Below, piece by piece: positions 752 to 22,726 of a stretch of DNA of 32,000 bases (within the stretch, counting starts at the first letter, position 1; every line of letters begins with the position of its first letter). The DNA is from an uncultured Alphaproteobacteria bacterium (GTDB lineage: Bacteria > Pseudomonadota > Alphaproteobacteria > Geminicoccales > Geminicoccaceae): NCBI GenBank assembly GCA_963840925.1, contig CAWJAY010000028.1:43919-75918 (forward strand), written 5' to 3'. Under the pieces are notes generated by a model. That model searched no databases. It was given only the letters and a program-made list of their open reading frames with translations, and was not told the DNA's origin. A program made the translations under genes and the position numbers.

Positions 752-1669
752 TCAGGCCTTGGTCGCGCCCGCGGTCAGGCCCGAGACCATGTACTTGCGG
801 ACGGCGTAGTAGAGTGCTGCCGGCGGCAACGAGTAGATGATCGCGGTCGCCATCAGCAGGCTCCAGGGAGCGTCGTCGGTGACCAGGAAATAGCCCATCG
901 CGACCGGGATCGTATGCTGCTTCTCGGTCGAGAGCAGCAGAAACGCGTACAGATACTCGTTCCAGGCGAGCAGGAGCGCATAGGTGCCGATCGCGATCAG
1001 GGCCGGCCGCAGCAGCGGAATGTAGACCAGGTAAAAGATCTGCAACGGGGTCGCGCCGTCGACCTTGGCCGCCTCATCGAGCTCGTACGGCACGCTCTCG
1101 CCGTACTGGCGCAGCACCCAGATAGCGTAGGGGATGGCGAAGGTCGACATCGCGAAGACCAGCGCCCAGAGCGTGTTGATGAGCCCGTAGTCGGACATGA
1201 CGACGTAGAACGGAATCGCGACGAAGGCGGCCGGGATCAGGTACGTGAGGAGCGCCGTATTCGAGATCACGTGACCGTAGCGCAGCTTGAGGCGGCCGAT
1301 GGCGAAGCTCGCGAGACTGGCCACGACCAGCACCATGACCATCGTGGCGAGCGCGACGAAGATGCTGTTCCAGAGCTGTCGCCAGAAGTCCTGCAGGAAG
1401 AAGTGATCCTCGGCAAAGACGATGCGAAAATTCTCGAGCGTCGGGCGGTCCGGCCAGAAGCGGCCGGCGAAGGAGTTGGAGAGCGGGGTCAGCGAAAGCA
1501 TCACCATGTGGTAGAGCGGCAGGAGCGTCCAGATCAGGATGACCACCCCGAAGAGCAGGAAGGCGCCTTCCGAGACCACGCGCCGGCCGGCGTAGACGGC
1601 GCCGCTGCGGATCGTCGACGAGCGGGCCCTGGGGCTGTCGCCGGGGATGGCAGGGGAACGGGCAATCAT
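752..1669 (-). CDS. carbohydrate ABC transporter permease (MalG/UgpE-like)
   Basis: 305-aa multi-TM ORF with the EAA-loop motif 'LDEAAKVDGATPLQIFYLVYIPLLRPAL'. It overlaps the upstream permease gene by 4 nt (1666-1669). Confidence 0.9.
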   Translation of the reverse strand: MIARSPAIPGDSPRARSSTIRSGAVYAGRRVVSEGAFLLFGVVILIWTLLPLYHMVMLSLTPLSNSFAGRFWPDRPTLENFRIVFAEDHFFLQDFWRQLWNSIFVALATMVMVLVVASLASFAIGRLKLRYGHVISNTALLTYLIPAAFVAIPFYVVMSDYGLINTLWALVFAMSTFAIPYAIWVLRQYGESVPYELDEAAKVDGATPLQIFYLVYIPLLRPALIAIGTYALLLAWNEYLYAFLLLSTEKQHTIPVAMGYFLVTDDAPWSLLMATAIIYSLPPAALYYAVRKYMVSGLTAGATKA

Positions 1670-2547
1670 GTCTCGGCCCTCCGTCCCAGCCGGCGCAGGA
1701 GCAAGATGACGAGCGGGATCAGGATCGGCAGCGCCGTCATCACCGTCGCCACACCGGTTCCTAGCTGCTGCAGGCTGAAGGCGTAGCGTATGCCAAGCGT
1801 GGCCAGCACGTGGGTCTTGTCCGCGGGGCCGCCACCGGTGAGCAGATAGACGCTATTGAAGTCGCCGAGGCTCCAGATCGTCGAGAGCAGCAGGCTCGTG
1901 ACGTAGAGGTTCTTGAGCTGCGGCCAGGTCACGTACCAGAATTGCTGCAACGGCGAGGCGCCATCGATCCTGGCCGCCTCGTACAGATCGGTCGGGATCG
2001 CCATCCGACCGGCGAGCAGGATCAAGGTCCAGAACGGCAGGTATTTCCAGATGTGGACGAAGATCACCGAGCCGAAGGCGAGGTCCGGCTTGACCAGCCA
2101 CCATGGCCCCTCGATGCCGAACAGGCTCCAAAGCAGGTTGTTGAACATCCCCCACTCGGAGTTCAGCATCCAGCGGAACGAGAAGATGGTCGGAATCGAG
2201 GGCACCGCCCACGGCAGGATGAAGATCACGCTGAGCCAGCGGATCCACGGGCGCACCGACGCGAAGTAGCCCGAGAGCAGAAGCGCCAGGAACATCTTGA
2301 GATTGATGCCGACACCGAGGAAGATCACGGTGTTCCACACCGTGTCAAGGTAAATTGGATCCGAGAGCAGGGTACGGTAGCTCGCCACGGAGGAGCCCAG
2401 CCAGACCCCGTAGGCGACCGGCCACACCACCAGGACCAGGAAGACCATCACGTAGGGGATGACGAAGATCGTACCCCAGACCATTTCAGGCGACCAGCGG
2501 TGGGCGCTGGCCTGCCGGCTGGGAAGGGTAACGGCCGTTACCGCCAT
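1666..2547 (-). CDS. carbohydrate ABC transporter permease (MalF/UgpA-like)
   Basis: 293-aa multi-TM ORF with the EAA-loop 'LYEAARIDGASPLQQFWYVTWPQLKN'. Same strand as, and adjacent to, the binding-protein gene. Confidence 0.9.
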   Translation of the reverse strand: MAVTAVTLPSRQASAHRWSPEMVWGTIFVIPYVMVFLVLVVWPVAYGVWLGSSVASYRTLLSDPIYLDTVWNTVIFLGVGINLKMFLALLLSGYFASVRPWIRWLSVIFILPWAVPSIPTIFSFRWMLNSEWGMFNNLLWSLFGIEGPWWLVKPDLAFGSVIFVHIWKYLPFWTLILLAGRMAIPTDLYEAARIDGASPLQQFWYVTWPQLKNLYVTSLLLSTIWSLGDFNSVYLLTGGGPADKTHVLATLGIRYAFSLQQLGTGVATVMTALPILIPLVILLLRRLGRRAET

Positions 2548-2625
2548 CTGAGATCTCCCCGATCTCGCTCGTGCGAGCAGAGGTGGCAGGAGGGAGCCTC
2601 GGGCTCCCTCCCTTGATCTATCCCG

Positions 2626-3966
2626 TCAGGTGCCGGCGACCTGCTTGATGCGCTCGATCAGCTCATCGACCGCGTCCTCCGCCGACCAATCCTCGAGGAC
2701 GACACGGCCGACCGCCTTGCCGTAGGCGTTCTCAGCGTTGATGTCGATGAGCTTGTAATTCACGTAGTGCGGCCAGACGGTCTGCGGCCGCTGCGTGTAC
2801 TGCTGCACCTCGACGATCCGGTGCGGGTCGTCCGTCTGCTGCCAGTACGGCGTGGCGATGATCCGCTTGTCCACCGGGAACCAGCGGGCGAGCGCGCCCT
2901 CGAGCTGCGGGCCGAGATTCTCCGGCTTGAGGAAAAAGCGCATGAACTCCTTGGCCGCTTCCTTGTTCTGCGCGTCTTTGAAGATCACCGCGGTCTTGAT
3001 CGAGGTGACGTACTCGATCGGACTGCCGTCCGGCTTGTCCGGCCATTCGATGGTGACCATCTGGTTCATGTAGCGATCCTTCTCGGCGTACTCCGAGGCC
3101 GGGATCGACAGCGACGGATTGGGCACCATGAAGGAGATCTGGTTCTTGAAGTTGACGTTGTTGTCGCCGTCTTGCCAGTTCACGGCACCGGGCGGGACGC
3201 AGCCGTCGAGATAGGGTTTGGTGTAGCTCTCGAGCGCCTTGATCATGCCCTCACGCGTTTCCGGCTGATCGACCAGCAGGTTGCCCTGGTCGTCGACAAG
3301 CTTCGTGTCGAAGGCGTTGAGGAACATCATGTAGGCGAAGACCGTGTCCGAGGCCGCGGACGACATCGGCTGGCCGACGCCAAACTTTTGGCGGTCGCCG
3401 GTCGCCTCGCGCACCGCCGGTTGCGCGGTCGTGCACCACCAATCCCACCACTCGTTCCAGGTGTTGGGAACATCATCAAGGCTGAGCCCAGCCTCCTCGA
3501 TCATGCTCTTCCAGACGTGGATGTGCTCGACCTGCTGCGCCACCGGGATCGCGTAAATGGAGCGCGCGCCCGTCTGCCCGTTGAGCAGGGTCACGGCCTG
3601 GATCGCGGTCGGCAGCAGGTGCTCTTTGATCGGCTCGACCACATCCGACACGTCCTCGAGGACGCCGTCGAATGCCCAGCGCGAAGTGTGCGACAGATCG
3701 AACAGGAACCCGTAAGACAGGTCCGGCGGGTCGCCGGCGGTCAGCGCCGCCAACACCTTACGCGGCACGTCCTCGTTGGTGTAGTAGACGTACTCGACGT
3801 CGATGCCCGCCTCCTTCTCGAACGCAGCCACCGTCTTGTCAAACTGCTGATCCTCCTCCGGATAGTAGCTCTTGTTCCACCAGATCACGAGATCGGCGGC
3901 GTACGCCGGCACCGACAGCGTGATCAGAAAGGTTGTGGCGAGTATGCCTCGCGCCAGCCTGGGCAT
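2626..3966 (-). CDS. ABC transporter extracellular solute-binding protein (family 1, sugar type)
   Basis: The ORF extends to 4002, but the ATG at 3966 has a strong SD (GGGGAGGAG about 7 nt upstream). It yields a signal peptide MPRLARGILATTFLITLSVPAYA. Size (~446 aa) and operon context fit CUT1 binding proteins. Confidence 0.85.
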   Translation of the reverse strand: MPRLARGILATTFLITLSVPAYAADLVIWWNKSYYPEEDQQFDKTVAAFEKEAGIDVEYVYYTNEDVPRKVLAALTAGDPPDLSYGFLFDLSHTSRWAFDGVLEDVSDVVEPIKEHLLPTAIQAVTLLNGQTGARSIYAIPVAQQVEHIHVWKSMIEEAGLSLDDVPNTWNEWWDWWCTTAQPAVREATGDRQKFGVGQPMSSAASDTVFAYMMFLNAFDTKLVDDQGNLLVDQPETREGMIKALESYTKPYLDGCVPPGAVNWQDGDNNVNFKNQISFMVPNPSLSIPASEYAEKDRYMNQMVTIEWPDKPDGSPIEYVTSIKTAVIFKDAQNKEAAKEFMRFFLKPENLGPQLEGALARWFPVDKRIIATPYWQQTDDPHRIVEVQQYTQRPQTVWPHYVNYKLIDINAENAYGKAVGRVVLEDWSAEDAVDELIERIKQVAGT

Positions 3967-4065
3967 GTCCCTGCTCCTCCCCAATGCGAATTCACCGAGC
4001 ACCCCGCGCGCGCCTGGCGGGCGGGGCGGCGTGCAACCGAATCGTAGCCCGCTTCGCAGGCTCCG

Positions 4066-8057: not shown

Positions 8058-8155
8058 GATCGTCTCCCGATTTCCGACGAGCTGCGGCCTTGTCCAAGCC
8101 TAGCCGCTATGCTGCGCAGAACAAGCCCGCGCTGATCGAGCCGGAAGGATCACCG

Positions 8156-9112
8156 ATGCCTGAGCTGAACCCGCAGATGGCCGCCATCCTTGCCCTGATC
8201 GCGGACGCGATGAAAGGCCGCCCGGAGCGCACGTCGCTCTCGGCGGTCGAGGCGCGGGCGCAGACCAGCGCCACGACCGAGGCGTTCTGGACCGCCGACC
8301 GGCCGGTCCTCTGGGCGATCTACAACCACGAGGTCCCGGGCCCGGGCGGGCCCATCCGGGTCCGCCTGTACGATCCAGGCGTCGCGCGGCCGGCGCCCTG
8401 TCTCGTCTACCTCCACGGCGGCGGCTGGGTGATCTGCAATCTCGAGACCCACGATGGCGTCTGCCGGCGCCTGGCCCGCGCGGGCGGCTTCCTGGTCGCG
8501 AGCGTCGATTATCGGCTGGCGCCCGAGCACAAGTTCCCGGCCGGGCTCGAGGACTGCCTGGCCGCGGTCCGCTGGCTCGAGGAGCAGGGCGGCGCCTGGG
8601 GCATCGACACCGCGCGGCTCGCGGTCGGCGGCGACAGCGCCGGCGCCAATCTGGCGCTGGCGACGCTCCTCAGCCGGCGCGATGCCGGCGCCAGGCCGCT
8701 GCTCGCGGGCCTGCTGATCTATGGCGCCTACGCGGCCTACACGGCCGAGTTCGAGAGCGCCTCGCAACGGGCATTCGGCGATGGCAGCTACATCCTGTCG
8801 GCCGCCGACATGCGCTGGTTCTGGCACCACTACATCAAGGACCCGGCTGACAACCGCAATCCCCTCGCGGTGCCGCTGCTGGCCGACCTCGCCGGTCTGC
8901 CGCCACTGCTGGTGACCGCGGCCGAATTCGACCCGCTGCTCGACGACACGACCGCGCTGATCGCCAGGCTCGAGGCCGCGGCGGCACCCCACCGCTACGT
9001 CCTCTGGCCGGGCGTCACCCACGCCTCGATCCAGATGACCCGAATGCTCGACGTCGCCCAGGACCACATCGAGGACATGGCCAGCTGGGTCAAAGCGCAG
9101 CTCGACTTGTAG
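8156..9112 (+). CDS. alpha/beta hydrolase, HSL-family esterase/lipase (fold-3)
   Basis: Oxyanion motif 'YLHGGGW' and nucleophile elbow 'GGDSAGANLA'. The ATG at 8156 is preceded by GGAAGGA. The ORF-track start at 8090 is probably too early. Confidence 0.9.
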   Translation: MPELNPQMAAILALIADAMKGRPERTSLSAVEARAQTSATTEAFWTADRPVLWAIYNHEVPGPGGPIRVRLYDPGVARPAPCLVYLHGGGWVICNLETHDGVCRRLARAGGFLVASVDYRLAPEHKFPAGLEDCLAAVRWLEEQGGAWGIDTARLAVGGDSAGANLALATLLSRRDAGARPLLAGLLIYGAYAAYTAEFESASQRAFGDGSYILSAADMRWFWHHYIKDPADNRNPLAVPLLADLAGLPPLLVTAAEFDPLLDDTTALIARLEAAAAPHRYVLWPGVTHASIQMTRMLDVAQDHIEDMASWVKAQLDL

Positions 9113-9200
9113 GAATCGCGGCAGCCCGCGCTGGAAGGCCCTCGATCATCCTGTTACGTTCTTCGGCATCGATCGAATTATCTCTGGACGCGGAGGTCCC

Positions 9201-10592
9201 ATGACAGCACCCAGCCATCGCATTACCGAGGTGCGAAGACGCGACGGCACCAGTCGCGCGATCCTGTTCCTCCATGGCTTCGGCGGCAGTCATCAAAGCA
9301 CCTGGAGCTGCTTCCCGTTCATCGCCGGCACGGATCCGGCGCTCAACGACTGGGACATCTTGAACCTCGGGTTCAGCACTAACCTGCTGCCCGACATCCG
9401 GCGCATCTGGTCGGCCGATCCGGATCTGCCGGGGCTCGCCCTCCATTTGAAGACCCGCCTGGAAAATGCGCCCCTGGCTCAATACCAGTCGCTGGCGATC
9501 GTCGCCCACAGCATGGGCGGCCTCGTCGTGCAGCGGGCCTTGCTCGATGATCTGGCGATCGGCCCACGCACGTCTCACCTGCTGATGTTCGGCACGCCGA
9601 GCAAGGGCCTGCGCAAGGCCGGGTATTTTTCGTTCCTGAAGCCGCAGCTCAAGAACATGGCAGACGACAGTCCCTTCATCTTACAGCTGCGGGACAGCTG
9701 GACGAGCCGCTACCCCAATCCGGTGTTCAAGCTCCTCGCGATCGCGGGCGATCGGGATCAGTTCGTGCCGGTCGAGTCCTCGATCTACCCGTTCGCGGAT
9801 GCTCATCGACGGATGGTCGCGGGCGATCATCTCTCGATGGTCAAGCCCGACGACGCGAGGGCGGAAAGCGTCGGTCTGCTGGTCGGCGCGCTGACGGCGA
9901 AGGCTGAGCCTGCGGCCCCTTCGGCGCCTCTGCGGACCAGCTCTGCCGAGATGTCTGAAAACGAGGTCCGCCAGGAGCTGGTGAACCGTGCGGACAAGTT
10001 GACCGAGACGGAAGTCGTGAACGCGGCGCTCGAGCTCGATCTGAAGGGCCGACGCGAAGAGGCGATCGCAATGTTGCAGGCCCATCTCGGCCGCAGCACC
10101 GACATCAGCGGCACCTTGGCCGGTCGCTTCAAGCGTCGTTGGCTCGCGACCGGCGATCAGGCGGATGCACGGCGGGCGTTGCAGCTCTACCAGAGCGCGC
10201 TCGACACATCCTCAGCGGCGAACGACCATCAGCAGGCGTTTTATCACGCGATCAATGTCGCGTTTTTGCGCTTCGTCGTCTGGGACCAAAGGGAGGAGGC
10301 GATGCGCCTCGCGCAGCTGGCGCTCGGTCATTGCGCGCAAGCGCCTGACACGTTCTGGCGGGTCGCCACGGAAGCAGAGGCCTACCTTTATCTGGGCAAG
10401 GTCGGGCTGGCGCTCGCGACCTACGGCCGGCTGTTCGCGATGGGCGCCGGGCCCGGACAACTGCAGTCTGCCGGCCAGCAGGCGTATCAAGTCGCGCATA
10501 AGCTCGGCGACGCCGAGCTTGAGGCGACTCTGCTGACCCTCTTCAACCCGGAAACCCACCAGTCGGAACAGCCGGCGGGCGGCCTGCGTTAG
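9201..10592 (+). CDS. lipase-like alpha/beta hydrolase (DUF676/PGAP1/sesB-SERAC1 type) fused to a DUF4071 (ASK1-type TPR-like) C-terminal module
   Basis: SD GGAGG lies 5 nt upstream of the ATG. Hydrolase motifs are 'LFLHGFGGS', 'AHSMGG' (Ser104, nt 9510-9512), 'GDRDQFV' and 'GDHLSMV'. The C-terminal 'GRFKRRWLATGD...ALQLYQSAL...AFYHAINVAFL...FWRVATEAEAYLYLG' follows the DUF4071 pattern as I remember it. Confidence 0.8.
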   Translation: MTAPSHRITEVRRRDGTSRAILFLHGFGGSHQSTWSCFPFIAGTDPALNDWDILNLGFSTNLLPDIRRIWSADPDLPGLALHLKTRLENAPLAQYQSLAIVAHSMGGLVVQRALLDDLAIGPRTSHLLMFGTPSKGLRKAGYFSFLKPQLKNMADDSPFILQLRDSWTSRYPNPVFKLLAIAGDRDQFVPVESSIYPFADAHRRMVAGDHLSMVKPDDARAESVGLLVGALTAKAEPAAPSAPLRTSSAEMSENEVRQELVNRADKLTETEVVNAALELDLKGRREEAIAMLQAHLGRSTDISGTLAGRFKRRWLATGDQADARRALQLYQSALDTSSAANDHQQAFYHAINVAFLRFVVWDQREEAMRLAQLALGHCAQAPDTFWRVATEAEAYLYLGKVGLALATYGRLFAMGAGPGQLQSAGQQAYQVAHKLGDAELEATLLTLFNPETHQSEQPAGGLR

Positions 10593-10622
10593 CCACTGGG
10601 ACCCAGGCAATGGAAACCGGAT

Positions 10623-10910
10623 ATGAGCACCTACGAGCCGCGGCCGATCGACACCTCGACGGTCGAGTTGGCTGACGAGCTCCAGCTGTTGACCGAACAG
10701 CTGGCCGAGAATGCCCACGACCACTGGGCCAAGCGACGGATTGCGGAGGGCTGGACCTTCGGCCCCTGCCGCGACGAGGCGGCGATGAGCCATCCGGATC
10801 TCGTGCCTTATGCGGAGCTGTCCGAGGGCGAGAAGGAGTACGACCGCGAGACCGCCATGCAGACGCTGCGCGCGATCATCGCGCTTGGCTGGCGGATCGA
10901 GCGGGGCTGA
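10623..10910 (+). CDS. stand-alone RyR (ryanodine-receptor repeat) domain protein
   Basis: The 95-aa ORF lies 30 nt downstream of the previous gene. 'LAENAHDHWAKRRIAEGWTFGPCRDEAAMSHPDLVPYAELSEGEKEYDRETAMQTL' matches the RyR-domain (PF02026) consensus pattern from memory. Confidence 0.8.
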   Translation: MSTYEPRPIDTSTVELADELQLLTEQLAENAHDHWAKRRIAEGWTFGPCRDEAAMSHPDLVPYAELSEGEKEYDRETAMQTLRAIIALGWRIERG

Positions 10911-10920
10911 GGCCGAGCCG

Positions 10921-11925
10921 TCACATCGAGGTCAGAGGCCGGGCCTCCTCCGCCGCGGCGGCCGAGCGCTGCTGGCGCGCAAGCCGCGCCTCGCGTTGGG
11001 CGATGTAGATCGTCGAGGCGAAGATCAGGCCGCCGCCGAGCCAGGTCCAGAGGCTCGGCACCTCGGCGAACCAGAGGTAGGCGACCAGCGCCCCGAACGG
11101 CAGGCGCAGGAACTCGAACGGCACCACTGCGGATGCCTCCGCGAGGTGGACCGAGCGGGTGAGCGTGAGCCAGCTGAGCGTGCCGAAGCCGCCGATCGCG
11201 ATCAGCAGCAGCCAGCCCGAGAGGTCCGGGGTGCGCCAGTGGAGCAGGGCCAGCGGCAATGAGAGCAGGGTCGCGAACAGCGCCTGGTACCAGACGATGG
11301 TCGGGACCCGCTCGGTCAGCGTCAGGCGCTTGATCATCAAGGTGACGACCGCGGCGAGCAGGGCGCCGAGCAGCACGAGCCCGGCGAACGGCGAGATCGC
11401 CGCAGCGCCCGGCCGGAGCACGATCAGGACCCCCGCCAGGCCCAGCCCGACCGCGGCCCAGCGCCGGCCACGCACGACCTCGTGCAGGACCAGCGCCGCG
11501 CCTACGGTCGCGAACAGGGGCTTGGAGAACGCGAGCGCGATCACTTCGGCAAGCGGCAGATAAGCGATCGCGACGAAATAGCAGATCATGCCGGCGACGT
11601 GCCCGACGCTCATCAGGAGCAGCCGCCCGGGGCGCCGCGCCCGGAACATCTCGAGCCGCAGCCCGCCCATGAACGGCAGCATCGCGAACAGGCCGAACAG
11701 GTTGCGGAAGAACACGACCTCGAAGGCGTGGACATCGGCGGACACGACGCGGATCATGCCGTTCTGGATCGCGACGCAGACCGCGCCCAGGACCATCAGC
11801 AGCGCCGCCTGGACGATCGGCGACCGGCTGCGATAGGCGGTGGCGAGTGCCCGCACCGTCGCGCTCAGGCGGGCGGCGCCCGATCGCGCCGCAGGTATGC
11901 CTCCGGCAGCGTCCCGCCGCAGCAA
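10921..11925 (-). CDS. DMT-superfamily (EamA-like) transporter
   Basis: 334 aa with about 10 hydrophobic segments in two halves typical of EamA repeats. The exact start is uncertain. Confidence 0.8.
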   Translation of the reverse strand: MLRRDAAGGIPAARSGAARLSATVRALATAYRSRSPIVQAALLMVLGAVCVAIQNGMIRVVSADVHAFEVVFFRNLFGLFAMLPFMGGLRLEMFRARRPGRLLLMSVGHVAGMICYFVAIAYLPLAEVIALAFSKPLFATVGAALVLHEVVRGRRWAAVGLGLAGVLIVLRPGAAAISPFAGLVLLGALLAAVVTLMIKRLTLTERVPTIVWYQALFATLLSLPLALLHWRTPDLSGWLLLIAIGGFGTLSWLTLTRSVHLAEASAVVPFEFLRLPFGALVAYLWFAEVPSLWTWLGGGLIFASTIYIAQREARLARQQRSAAAAEEARPLTSM

Positions 11926-22122: not shown

Positions 22123-22726
22123 GGCCACATCCTCCCTACGATGCTGACCCTCTGGCGCTCCGGCGGCTCTGATCGCAATTTACACTTGCCGCCGCTAGTT
22201 CCGTGCCTTGCCGATCAGCTCTACCGCTCTCGGCTCGGTCGAAGACCTGGTTGCGAACCGATGCGCGCTCAACATCCGGAACTCATCGTTGCCTTAATCA
22301 AATCCGTCGGCACAACTTGTTCAAGAGAATTTTTGCTCCTTGGTTTTATTGCTTGAAACTTCGAAAAATTTGATACAAATCCGGCTCTAACGCTTTATGA
22401 CATGACAACGAAAAACCGAGAGATCACACCACGTTACAGTGAGTTCGTGCCGACGGCGGGCGCGATCGGGGCGACGTTCAAGGTCGAGATGGCCGCGTGC
22501 CGCCGGCACTCATCAACTACTGATTGGTCGCAACTCGGATTGCAAATCGCTCGTTTGAACAATCGATGGCGCGCCACCCGGCGCCACCAGTCGCAGCTGG
22601 ACGAAGCCTGAGGCTCTGCCTATTGTCCCGCTCGCCGCCGGCGATCGGTCCGTCCGGCAGGCTGCTGTCCGCGACGATTGACGGTCATCGAATGACGCCG
22701 CCGTCGGGGCCGGAAGGCCCGGAACC

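Follow-up and report, generated by a model that had tools for sequence, protein, structure and literature searches.

A TIR-deleted lipase-TPR-S protein and its RyR-repeat neighbour in an alphaproteobacterial chromosome: a candidate Thoeris-like module with a putative host-encoded signal binder

The subject of this study is a two-gene cassette at positions 9201-10910 of a 32,000-nucleotide (nt) stretch of DNA, referred to here as the window, from an uncultured Alphaproteobacteria bacterium of the Geminicoccaceae (assembly GCA_963840925.1, contig CAWJAY010000028.1). Gene 1 (9201..10592, forward strand, 463 amino acids) fuses a lipase-like alpha/beta hydrolase to a TPR-S module and belongs, as a TIR-less member, to a hydrolase-TPR-S-TIR family; gene 2 (10623..10910, forward strand, 95 amino acids) is a single ryanodine receptor (RyR) repeat of family PF02026. 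The cassette is best read, with a probability of roughly 0.55, as a Thoeris-like module in which a lipase effector and a TPR-S signal receptor have lost their TIR generator, and in which the RyR protein would be a host-encoded binder or cleaver of the signal that buffers or resets the system. The copy in the window has had its TIR deleted and sits in unremarkable chromosomal surroundings; the association of RyR with TIR across the family is the more interesting result.

The family behind gene 1 comprises 811 recovered homologues, most of them about 610 amino acids long and carrying a C-terminal TIR_2 domain after TPR-S. Among 84 aligned homologues, 59 have the C-terminal TIR, and the catalytic-type glutamate is kept in 58 of these; the PADLOC ThsB model matches the TIR part of the family at 6.7e-15. 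TIR-less forms account for about 30% of the family, including whole basal clades. A neighbour-joining tree of 68 family cores places the TIR-fused proteins in one derived clade with three or more internal losses of TIR. One of these losses is that of the window together with L001, its closest relative (76% identity, also TIR-less). A scan of genome contigs with a single protein found no family loci; in an alignment-based rescan the generic AHSMGG hydrolase motif dominated, leaving nine true family loci and 48 others that were used as negative controls. The original prediction, made from the window alone, did not include the central point about the family, namely the TIR fusion in most members, which the window copy has lost.

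Alignment of the DNA reveals a clean deletion of about 440 nt of TIR-coding sequence with the same junction in the window and L001, the segment being present in L002 and L145. In the window, the junction and a new C-terminal tail occupy 10545..10592 (forward strand), with the TIR segment missing after codon F448. From about amino acid 452, the tail (…THQSEQPAGGLR*) is a read-through of DNA that is intergenic in TIR-bearing relatives, and it is disordered in the structural model, with a predicted local distance difference test score (pLDDT) below 50. The motif AAYCCGG flanks the TIR segment on both sides in L145, a pattern from which loss by microhomology-mediated deletion may be supposed. The state before the loss is illustrated by L002, a syntenic metagenomic contig whose homologue is 63% identical to gene 1, extends to 600 amino acids with TIR, and adjoins a 95-amino-acid RyR gene. 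Additionally, since TIR can also be a separate neighbouring gene, adjoining a TIR-less member in L010, L130 and L137, functional coupling between the two parts is indicated. Two further observations concern copies with a broken reading frame. At L145:2371-4931, a syntenic full-length gene 1 with TIR runs across three reading frames, as a pseudogene or through long-read indel errors. A frameshift common to two independent metagenome contigs (L079:4137-6016 and L081:2-1368) splits TIR there with the downstream RyR intact, which is another route to TIR inactivation.

The TPR-S module of gene 1 (9984..10550, forward strand, amino acids 262-450) is the proposed receptor for a TIR-derived nucleotide. 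Pfam model PF20308 matches amino acids 261-356 with an expectation value (E) of 1.8e-13 and 51.4 bits against a gathering cut-off of 27.6, and gene 1 has no match to PF13281 (DUF4071/MAP3K_TRAF_bd) even at E <= 1. The module had been identified as DUF4071, which was right as to the superfamily and wrong as to the model: the two families are related, because neighbouring TPR-S paralogues with other N-terminal domains match both PF20308 and PF13281, as do plasmid-borne ones. For one TPR-S paralogue, full-length relatives occur on 72 plasmids, where NCBI annotates them as 'TRAFs-binding/DUF4071 domain protein'. ASK1, to which the module had been likened, was not retrieved from PDB sequences by the TPR-S profile at E <= 10. 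Within the module, G308-R309-x-K311-R312-x-W314, Y330, Q345, Y348 and I351-N352 are invariant columns, and W386/A389/T390/E393/A394 are almost so.

In type VIII Thoeris, as described by Yirmiya et al. (bioRxiv 10.64898/2025.12.03.692087), the effector ThsI ('CMP hydrolase and TPR') is paired with a ThsB TIR protein, and the signal is canonical cyclic ADP-ribose (cADPR). Profile-profile comparison by hhalign aligned the gene 1 TPR-S with that of ThsI-like proteins over 157 columns (probability 98.5%, E 2.3e-15), with the motif blocks G-L-G--KR-W, YY--IN-A and W--AT-AEA common to both; a single-sequence comparison of TPR-S with one ThsI-like protein gave a probability of 1.4%. A Thoeris effector is expected to have a signal-sensing domain; the candidate for it in gene 1 is a module homologous to that of ThsI-like proteins encoded beside ThsB, for which sensing is proposed in the literature. 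The high conservation of TPR-S, together with its basic KR-W/YY-N block, is more in keeping with a small ligand that stays the same than with a phage protein that evolves fast. Neither TPR-S nor RyR is mentioned in Kaur 2020/2021 or Iyer 2022. On the Escherichia coli plasmid pKMi029_2, two ThsB_TIR genes and a DUF4231/SLATT gene come directly after a ThsI-like TPR-S gene, an arrangement that corresponds to type VIII (plus type VII) Thoeris; L153:3013-6209 (E. coli NZ_CP147111.1, an IncP conjugative plasmid), where a ThsI-like TPR-S gene, two ThsB_TIR genes and a DUF4231/SLATT gene stand together, looks like a combined type VIII and type VII Thoeris locus.

The N-terminal effector domain of gene 1 (9201..9905, forward strand, amino acids 1-235) has the features of an alpha/beta hydrolase: an AHSMG elbow (sm-x-Ser-x-sm), Asp and His in canonical order, and alternating strands and helices in the model. 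Its catalytic triad, Ser104 (9510-9512), Asp186 (9756-9758) and His210 (9828-9830), all on the forward strand, is unchanged across the 84-homologue alignment. The AHSMGG elbow resembles that of Bacillus LipA-type lipases. The AlphaFold model of gene 1 (pLDDT 88.7) finds its best Foldseek matches in CALB lipase, the Legionella phospholipase PlaB, the Bacillus lipase BlEst2 and PGAP1, with E between 3e-5 and 2e-4. The suggested membership of the DUF676/PGAP1 families did not survive: PF05057 (DUF676) gave no Pfam match for gene 1, and PGAP1 scored 19.8 bits against a cut-off of 24.3, over only 42 residues round the elbow. The broader claim, an effector of the lipase-like hydrolase type fused to a sensor-type repeat module, is upheld by the triad, the lipase fold matches and TPR-S. 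A lipid is a putative substrate; lipases, either patatin or LCAT/PGAP1-like, recur at other RyR/TIR loci. The lowest-confidence loop of the model (window 9381-9413, amino acids 61-71, pLDDT about 44) is followed closely by or includes the family-invariant residues W70, D73, P74 and P77 (WSADPDLP); it may form a lid that moves, or a loop with a regulatory role, close to the active site.

Gene 2 is a stand-alone RyR repeat, as originally predicted: Pfam PF02026 matches it over its full length (model positions 1-91 of 91) with E 1.1e-35 and 122.2 bits against a cut-off of 27.4, and phmmer against PDB sequences gives E 1e-17 per animal repeat. Its model (pLDDT 96.4) superimposes on a Bacteroides thetaiotaomicron structure, 3NRT, with a template modelling (TM) score of 0.91, a root-mean-square deviation of 1.2 A and 54% identity, and on human RyR3 Repeat12 with 41% identity and a TM score of up to 0.90. 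Structures of Repeat12 in the presence of ATP and of ADP exist, which marks the fold as nucleotide-binding. The protein probably acts as a homodimer.

What RyR domains do in bacteria had been given as unknown, a statement that is now out of date. A preprint of May 2026 (PMC13232231) reports that phage PF02026 proteins, named 'RyDEP', hydrolyse the ribose-ribose bond of TIR-made 2'cADPR and 3'cADPR or sequester these signals, and that no protein hydrolysing either molecule was previously known. RyDEP uses H75, W78, H100 and D117 and supplies ADP-ribose (ADPR) to the resynthesis of nicotinamide adenine dinucleotide (NAD+); of eight phage homologues, six bind but do not cleave the signals, and the conserved residues do not distinguish cleavers from sponges (PMC13232231). 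Residues H32, W35, H57 and D74 of gene 2 correspond to these four at identical spacing. The four ligand and catalytic residues are invariant in an alignment of 12 sequences (gene 2, DyoEdafos gp78 and ten partner RyR proteins), and among 60 homologues they are invariant or at least 90% conserved. A tie of RyR to other nucleotide-signalling domains is seen at L151:2371-5300, where an 875-amino-acid RelA_SpoT-LSDAT(SLOG)-RyR fusion stands directly before a 99-amino-acid stand-alone RyR gene.

The pairing of RyR with the gene 1 family recurs in other genomes, as the original prediction had required of a genuine cassette. Among the 81 dereplicated clusters of the family, 15 have RyR close to the family gene; the control set, 48 loci with the hydrolase only (471 kb in all), has no such case (p = 0.001). 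Within the family it concentrates in the TIR clade (11/27, against 2/24 outside; p = 0.010), and every member of the window subclade (6/6) has it. The tree implies at least seven events of RyR gain or loss, and the position of RyR relative to the family gene varies: it may lie downstream, upstream or divergently, or be fused to TrkA_N or other proteins.

A reciprocal test took as its starting points a sample of nine stand-alone RyR genes on long contigs. The syntenic slot of the window is where three of them lie, with gene 1 gone in two and full but frameshifted in one. Among the six independent contexts, five lie beside TIR genes and one beside the RelA/SpoT-SLOG-RyR fusion. The contexts on the TIR side are diverse: patatin-RyR-TIR; RyR amid TIR-TPR-S, an LCAT-like lipase and trypsin-TPR-S; RyR-TIR beside STAND NTPases; and RyR-SIR2/TIR. 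Some of the distant RyR/TIR loci adjoin STAND NTPases. The linkage of host RyR genes to TIR is not described in the literature that was searched. Two of these loci deserve description in their own right. In L146:3794-6878 (Phycisphaerales CP070744.1), a patatin phospholipase gene is followed after a 1-nt gap by a 95-amino-acid RyR gene and then by a TIR_2 protein, with no TPR-S or SLOG sensor; this triad is possibly a distinct RyR-containing TIR system. L147:1-10285 holds TIR-TPR-S, trypsin-TPR-S, an LCAT/PGAP1-like lipase and an extra TIR gene, and its RyR overlaps an unknown 370-amino-acid open reading frame (ORF) by 4 nt.

Both genes of the cassette are under purifying selection. Between the window and L001, the ratio of nonsynonymous to synonymous substitution rates (dN/dS) is 0.24 for gene 1 (dS 0.69), equal in both domains; gene 2 gives 0.19-0.37 and the flanking genes 0.25-0.34. 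Because this selection continues, both genes are probably still working.

The RyR gene may also be regulated separately. The promoter-like motif GGAAC-N17-CGTT lies at 10565..10590 (forward strand), within the 3' end of gene 1, and stops 33 nt short of the RyR start codon. No other match occurs on either strand of the 32 kb (0.24 expected). L002, L063, L144 (a RyR-only locus) and L145 all retain the motif, at -58 to -63, and it is degenerate in L001, where RyR overlaps the gene 1 stop codon by 4 nt. We take GGAAC-N17-CGTT to be the promoter consensus of sigma factors of the extracytoplasmic function (ECF)/EcfG type. Since the motif is kept in four syntenic relatives, one of them with RyR alone, it suggests that RyR can be transcribed on its own from a putative ECF-type promoter. 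Neither a sigma-70 promoter nor a terminator was found between gene 1 and gene 2, and no sigma-70-like promoter was found in 8900-11100. Upstream of gene 1, a conserved block, CTGG … TACGTTC (9131..9161, forward strand), is invariant in five syntenic loci and possibly regulatory; it fits neither sigma-70 nor strict ECF spacing, with 19 nt from GGAAG to CGTT. As for translation, a Shine-Dalgarno sequence of its own had been claimed for each gene; gene 1 has a good one (GGAGG 5 nt before the ATG), and that of gene 2 is weak, of the GGAAA type only.

The proposed mechanism can be described for the ancestral single chain. Its N-terminal lipase-like serine hydrolase would be the effector; TPR-S would receive a signal that TIR makes and that derives from ADP-ribose, a role proposed for the homologous TPR of ThsI; and the C-terminal ThsB-like TIR would be the signal generator or NADase. 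The adjacent RyR protein would bind or hydrolyse the TIR product, as phage RyDEP proteins do, and would serve the host as a buffer or off-switch, setting how readily a protein containing both generator and receptor is activated. With the TIR segment deleted, the window would retain an orphan effector-sensor and a RyR gene with its own apparent ECF-type promoter; gene 1 may answer a signal made in trans, and RyR may bind or clear adenine-nucleotide signals. The data themselves show the domain identities, the conserved residues, the TIR deletion, the homology of TPR-S to that of ThsI-like proteins, the genomic association of RyR with TIR and with the family, and the purifying selection; the ligand, the lipase substrate, the sign of the RyR regulation, a role against phages and the function of the promoter are what we infer from them.

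Several points weigh against this proposal. The TIR generator that a Thoeris system encodes is missing here, no TIR gene being found anywhere in the 32-kb window, so that the signalling circuit is incomplete in this genome region, and the context is housekeeping and metabolic, vertically syntenic and not a defence island. About 80% of family members have no RyR neighbour, and when RyR is counted directly by fused-TIR status, 5 of 18 TIR-fused and 4 of 30 TIR-less members have it, no significant difference (p = 0.27). RyR also persists without gene 1 in L144 and L152, which implies some function independent of gene 1. Gene 2 is only about 34% identical to RyDEP and is closer to cellular and animal repeats that bind ATP and ADP, and the RyDEP work concerns phage proteins only (PMC13232231). 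The ThsI TPR was put forward as a cADPR sensor as a hypothesis, not a demonstrated function (10.64898/2025.12.03.692087). For the lipid substrate, the Foldseek E-values are modest and the Pfam hydrolase matches sub-threshold, Abhydrolase_6 reaching 24.8 bits on the N-terminal half of gene 1 against a cut-off of 26.3. Among PADLOC-DB v2 models, gene 1 has no match and gene 2 matches only PDC-S05, at E 0.038 over 27 amino acids.

Three other explanations were weighed against the same evidence. RyR might act positively, as a ligand-sensing subunit or adaptor that binds the TIR product, docks on the lipase-type effector and activates it. The L146 triad would suit such a role, its patatin phospholipase having neither SLOG nor TPR-S and being separated from RyR by 1 nt with the TIR protein next in line, as would the 4-nt overlaps of the RyR start with the preceding gene in L147 and L001, which suggest a stoichiometric complex, the fusion of RyR into larger proteins (TrkA_N-RyR, RelA_SpoT-SLOG-RyR and a 958-amino-acid protein), and the predominance of binding without cleavage, in six of eight, among the phage homologues (PMC13232231). 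Gene 1, however, already has a sensor-type module of its own in TPR-S, the 95-amino-acid RyR protein has no domain beyond the ligand pocket, its His/Asp catalytic dyad is invariant, and the rarity of RyR neighbours in the family speaks for a modulator with an accessory part more than for a receptor that the system needs; a positive role is regarded as unlikely. The buffering role of RyR is preferred to it.

A role outside conflict and immunity is rather improbable. Here gene 1 would be a housekeeping or stress-related cytosolic esterase or lipase, using its TPR for protein-protein interaction, and gene 2 an ECF-induced binder of ATP, ADP or ADPR in NAD/ADPR metabolism. The chromosomal, syntenic and metabolic setting, whose 32 kb contain neither mobile nor defence genes and no TIR, agrees with this, as do the RyR-only loci L144 and L152 under purifying selection, the ECF-type promoter-like motif before RyR, the binding of ATP or ADP by solved RyR repeats and the feeding of NAD+ resynthesis by phage RyDEP. 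Against it, most family members are fused to or lie beside a catalytically intact TIR, TPR-S otherwise occurs in Thoeris-type effectors beside ThsB, and stand-alone RyR lies beside TIR or STAND genes in five of six independent contexts. Least credible, and very improbable in our estimation, is a decaying remnant that became non-functional after the TIR loss and is conserved merely through recent common ancestry. A series resembling decay does exist in the one syntenic slot, from full (L002, L063) through TIR-deleted (window, L001) and frameshifted (L145) to gene 1 absent (L144, L152), with the frameshifted L079 and L081 elsewhere. Yet the dN/dS between the TIR-less copies is flank-like in both domains over a dS of 0.69, neither ORF is broken and none of the catalytic and ligand residues has been lost, TIR-less forms constitute nearly a third of the family and whole basal clades, and the L145 frameshifts may be errors of long-read assembly.

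If cellular RyR proteins do hydrolyse 2'cADPR or 3'cADPR beside their own TIR genes, this would show how bacteria restrain a self-damaging signalling pathway, would explain the source of phage anti-Thoeris RyR proteins, and would make evolutionary sense of the link between cADPR and the animal ryanodine receptor, long a matter of debate. A wider and distinctly tentative proposal, to which we give well under even odds, is that host RyR proteins are built-in attenuators of TIR-derived cADPR-type signals, the Thoeris counterpart of the ring nucleases of type III CRISPR, that phage RyDEP and perhaps animal Repeat12 descend from this host module, and that the lipase-TPR-S-TIR single chain is its commonest partner. 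No report of a host-encoded hydrolase of 2'cADPR or 3'cADPR was found in the literature that was searched. The natural TIR-less and RyR-only variants are ready-made controls.

The arrangement of the locus was as first described: two ORFs 30 nt apart, an upstream esterase (Abhydrolase_3, 8090..9112) and a convergent EamA/DMT ORF (10921..11925, reverse strand) 10 nt past gene 2. All peptides that had been quoted are present in the translation, namely LFLHGFGGS, AHSMGG (Ser104), GDRDQFV, GDHLSMV, GRFKRRW, YQSAL, AFYHAINVAFL and FWRVATEAEAYLYLG. The same syntenic slot holds the cassette in at least seven related contigs, the order in L002 being MFS, Lactamase_B_3, esterase, gene 1, RyR and EamA. 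The upstream esterase was considered as a part of the system and rejected; it adjoins RyR even where gene 1 is missing and belongs to the conserved flank. At L144:5001-5288 and L152:5001-5288, the slot after the esterase contains RyR alone, intact and under purifying selection.

A foreign origin had been hinted at from hand counts of GC content. The dip is real for gene 1 (64.9% GC, with a GC content at third codon positions, GC3, of 0.81; flanks 68-71% GC and GC3 0.87-0.93) and does not extend to gene 2, whose GC3 of 0.895 is like that of the flanks; the deficit of about 10 points in gene 1 GC3 is also found in L002. The hint is accordingly weak, and recent foreign acquisition was rejected as a strong claim: the GC3 of gene 1 is its sole support, the conserved synteny opposes it, and no mobile-element, tRNA or defence genes were found across the 32-kb window, nor any Rfam match. 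Elsewhere in the window, GC drops sharply to 0.48 at 22200-22399, against 70% GC for the window, with no confident ORF, tRNA or Rfam match there. Positions 1001-4000, of lower GC (0.61-0.66), encode the solute-binding protein and two permeases of an ABC transporter; because GC3 stays at about 0.9, the lowering is likely due to amino-acid composition and not to foreign origin.

Comparison with known systems places the module closest to type VIII Thoeris. The original prediction knew of no named system with this architecture, which holds only in part: PADLOC has no model for either protein, and NCBIfam offered nothing useful, but an effector-TPR-S protein beside TIR is type VIII Thoeris (10.64898/2025.12.03.692087). 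In both, an enzyme is fused N-terminally to a homologous PF20308 TPR-S (98.5% in hhalign) and has a TIR partner, which sits on the same chain in most relatives of gene 1 and has a gene of its own in ThsI loci. The ThsI effector is a CMP hydrolase, whereas that of gene 1 is a lipase-like alpha/beta hydrolase, and the TIR of the gene 1 family is of TIR_2 type on the same polypeptide, the window copy lacking it. None of the Thoeris types described includes a RyR partner. Because standalone TIR proteins were discarded in the Thoeris survey (10.64898/2025.12.03.692087), the single-chain layout was probably missed there. Type I Thoeris (ThsA SIR2-SLOG with ThsB) and the patatin CapV of CBASS share the logic of generator, small signal, sensor and cell-damaging effector; they differ from gene 1 in that its sensor is TPR-S and not SLOG, its effector an alpha/beta hydrolase and not patatin or SIR2, and its ancestral form a single chain. 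'SLOG Patatin' is a candidate Thoeris effector, and phospholipase-type effectors are used in CBASS.

For gene 2, the phage counterpart is RyDEP (Mycobacterium phage DyoEdafos gp78), with which it shares the PF02026 fold, the four residues at identical spacing and the near absence of anything beyond the ligand-binding domain. Unlike RyDEP, which is encoded in a phage NARP1 operon, gene 2 is chromosomal and lies beside a (former) TIR gene; with its 34% identity it lacks the N-terminal extension of about 40 amino acids and is nearer to the B. thetaiotaomicron and animal repeats, and its proposed role is self-regulation rather than anti-defence. The 'putative ryanodine receptor' of B. thetaiotaomicron (3NRT, 4N05, 6UAG), a single repeat deposited as dimers, is together with human RyR3 Repeat12 (6UHH, 9L90) the nearest solved structure; the animal repeats differ in forming tandem modules inside a 5000-amino-acid channel.

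Further afield, MAP3K_TRAF_bd/DUF4071 (PF13281; the central regulatory TPR region of ASK1) is a related helical-repeat family that gene 1 itself does not match. The sesB/SERAC1/DUF676/PGAP1 lipase domains of fungal NLR proteins resemble gene 1 as small, cap-less N-terminal alpha/beta hydrolases on repeat-containing sensor proteins, with PGAP1 a weak match; gene 1 differs in having no NOD or STAND NTPase, in scoring below the PGAP1 cut-off and in having no DUF676 match. Each part is of a kind already known: signalling by TIR, an effector with TPR-S as in type VIII Thoeris, and a cADPR binder with a RyR domain. What appears new is the lipase-TPR-S-TIR single chain with a chromosomal RyR partner, a combination absent from PADLOC and from the 29-type Thoeris survey, and with this hydrolase-TPR-S-TIR family the layouts of Thoeris gain one that is of lipase type and carried on a single polypeptide.

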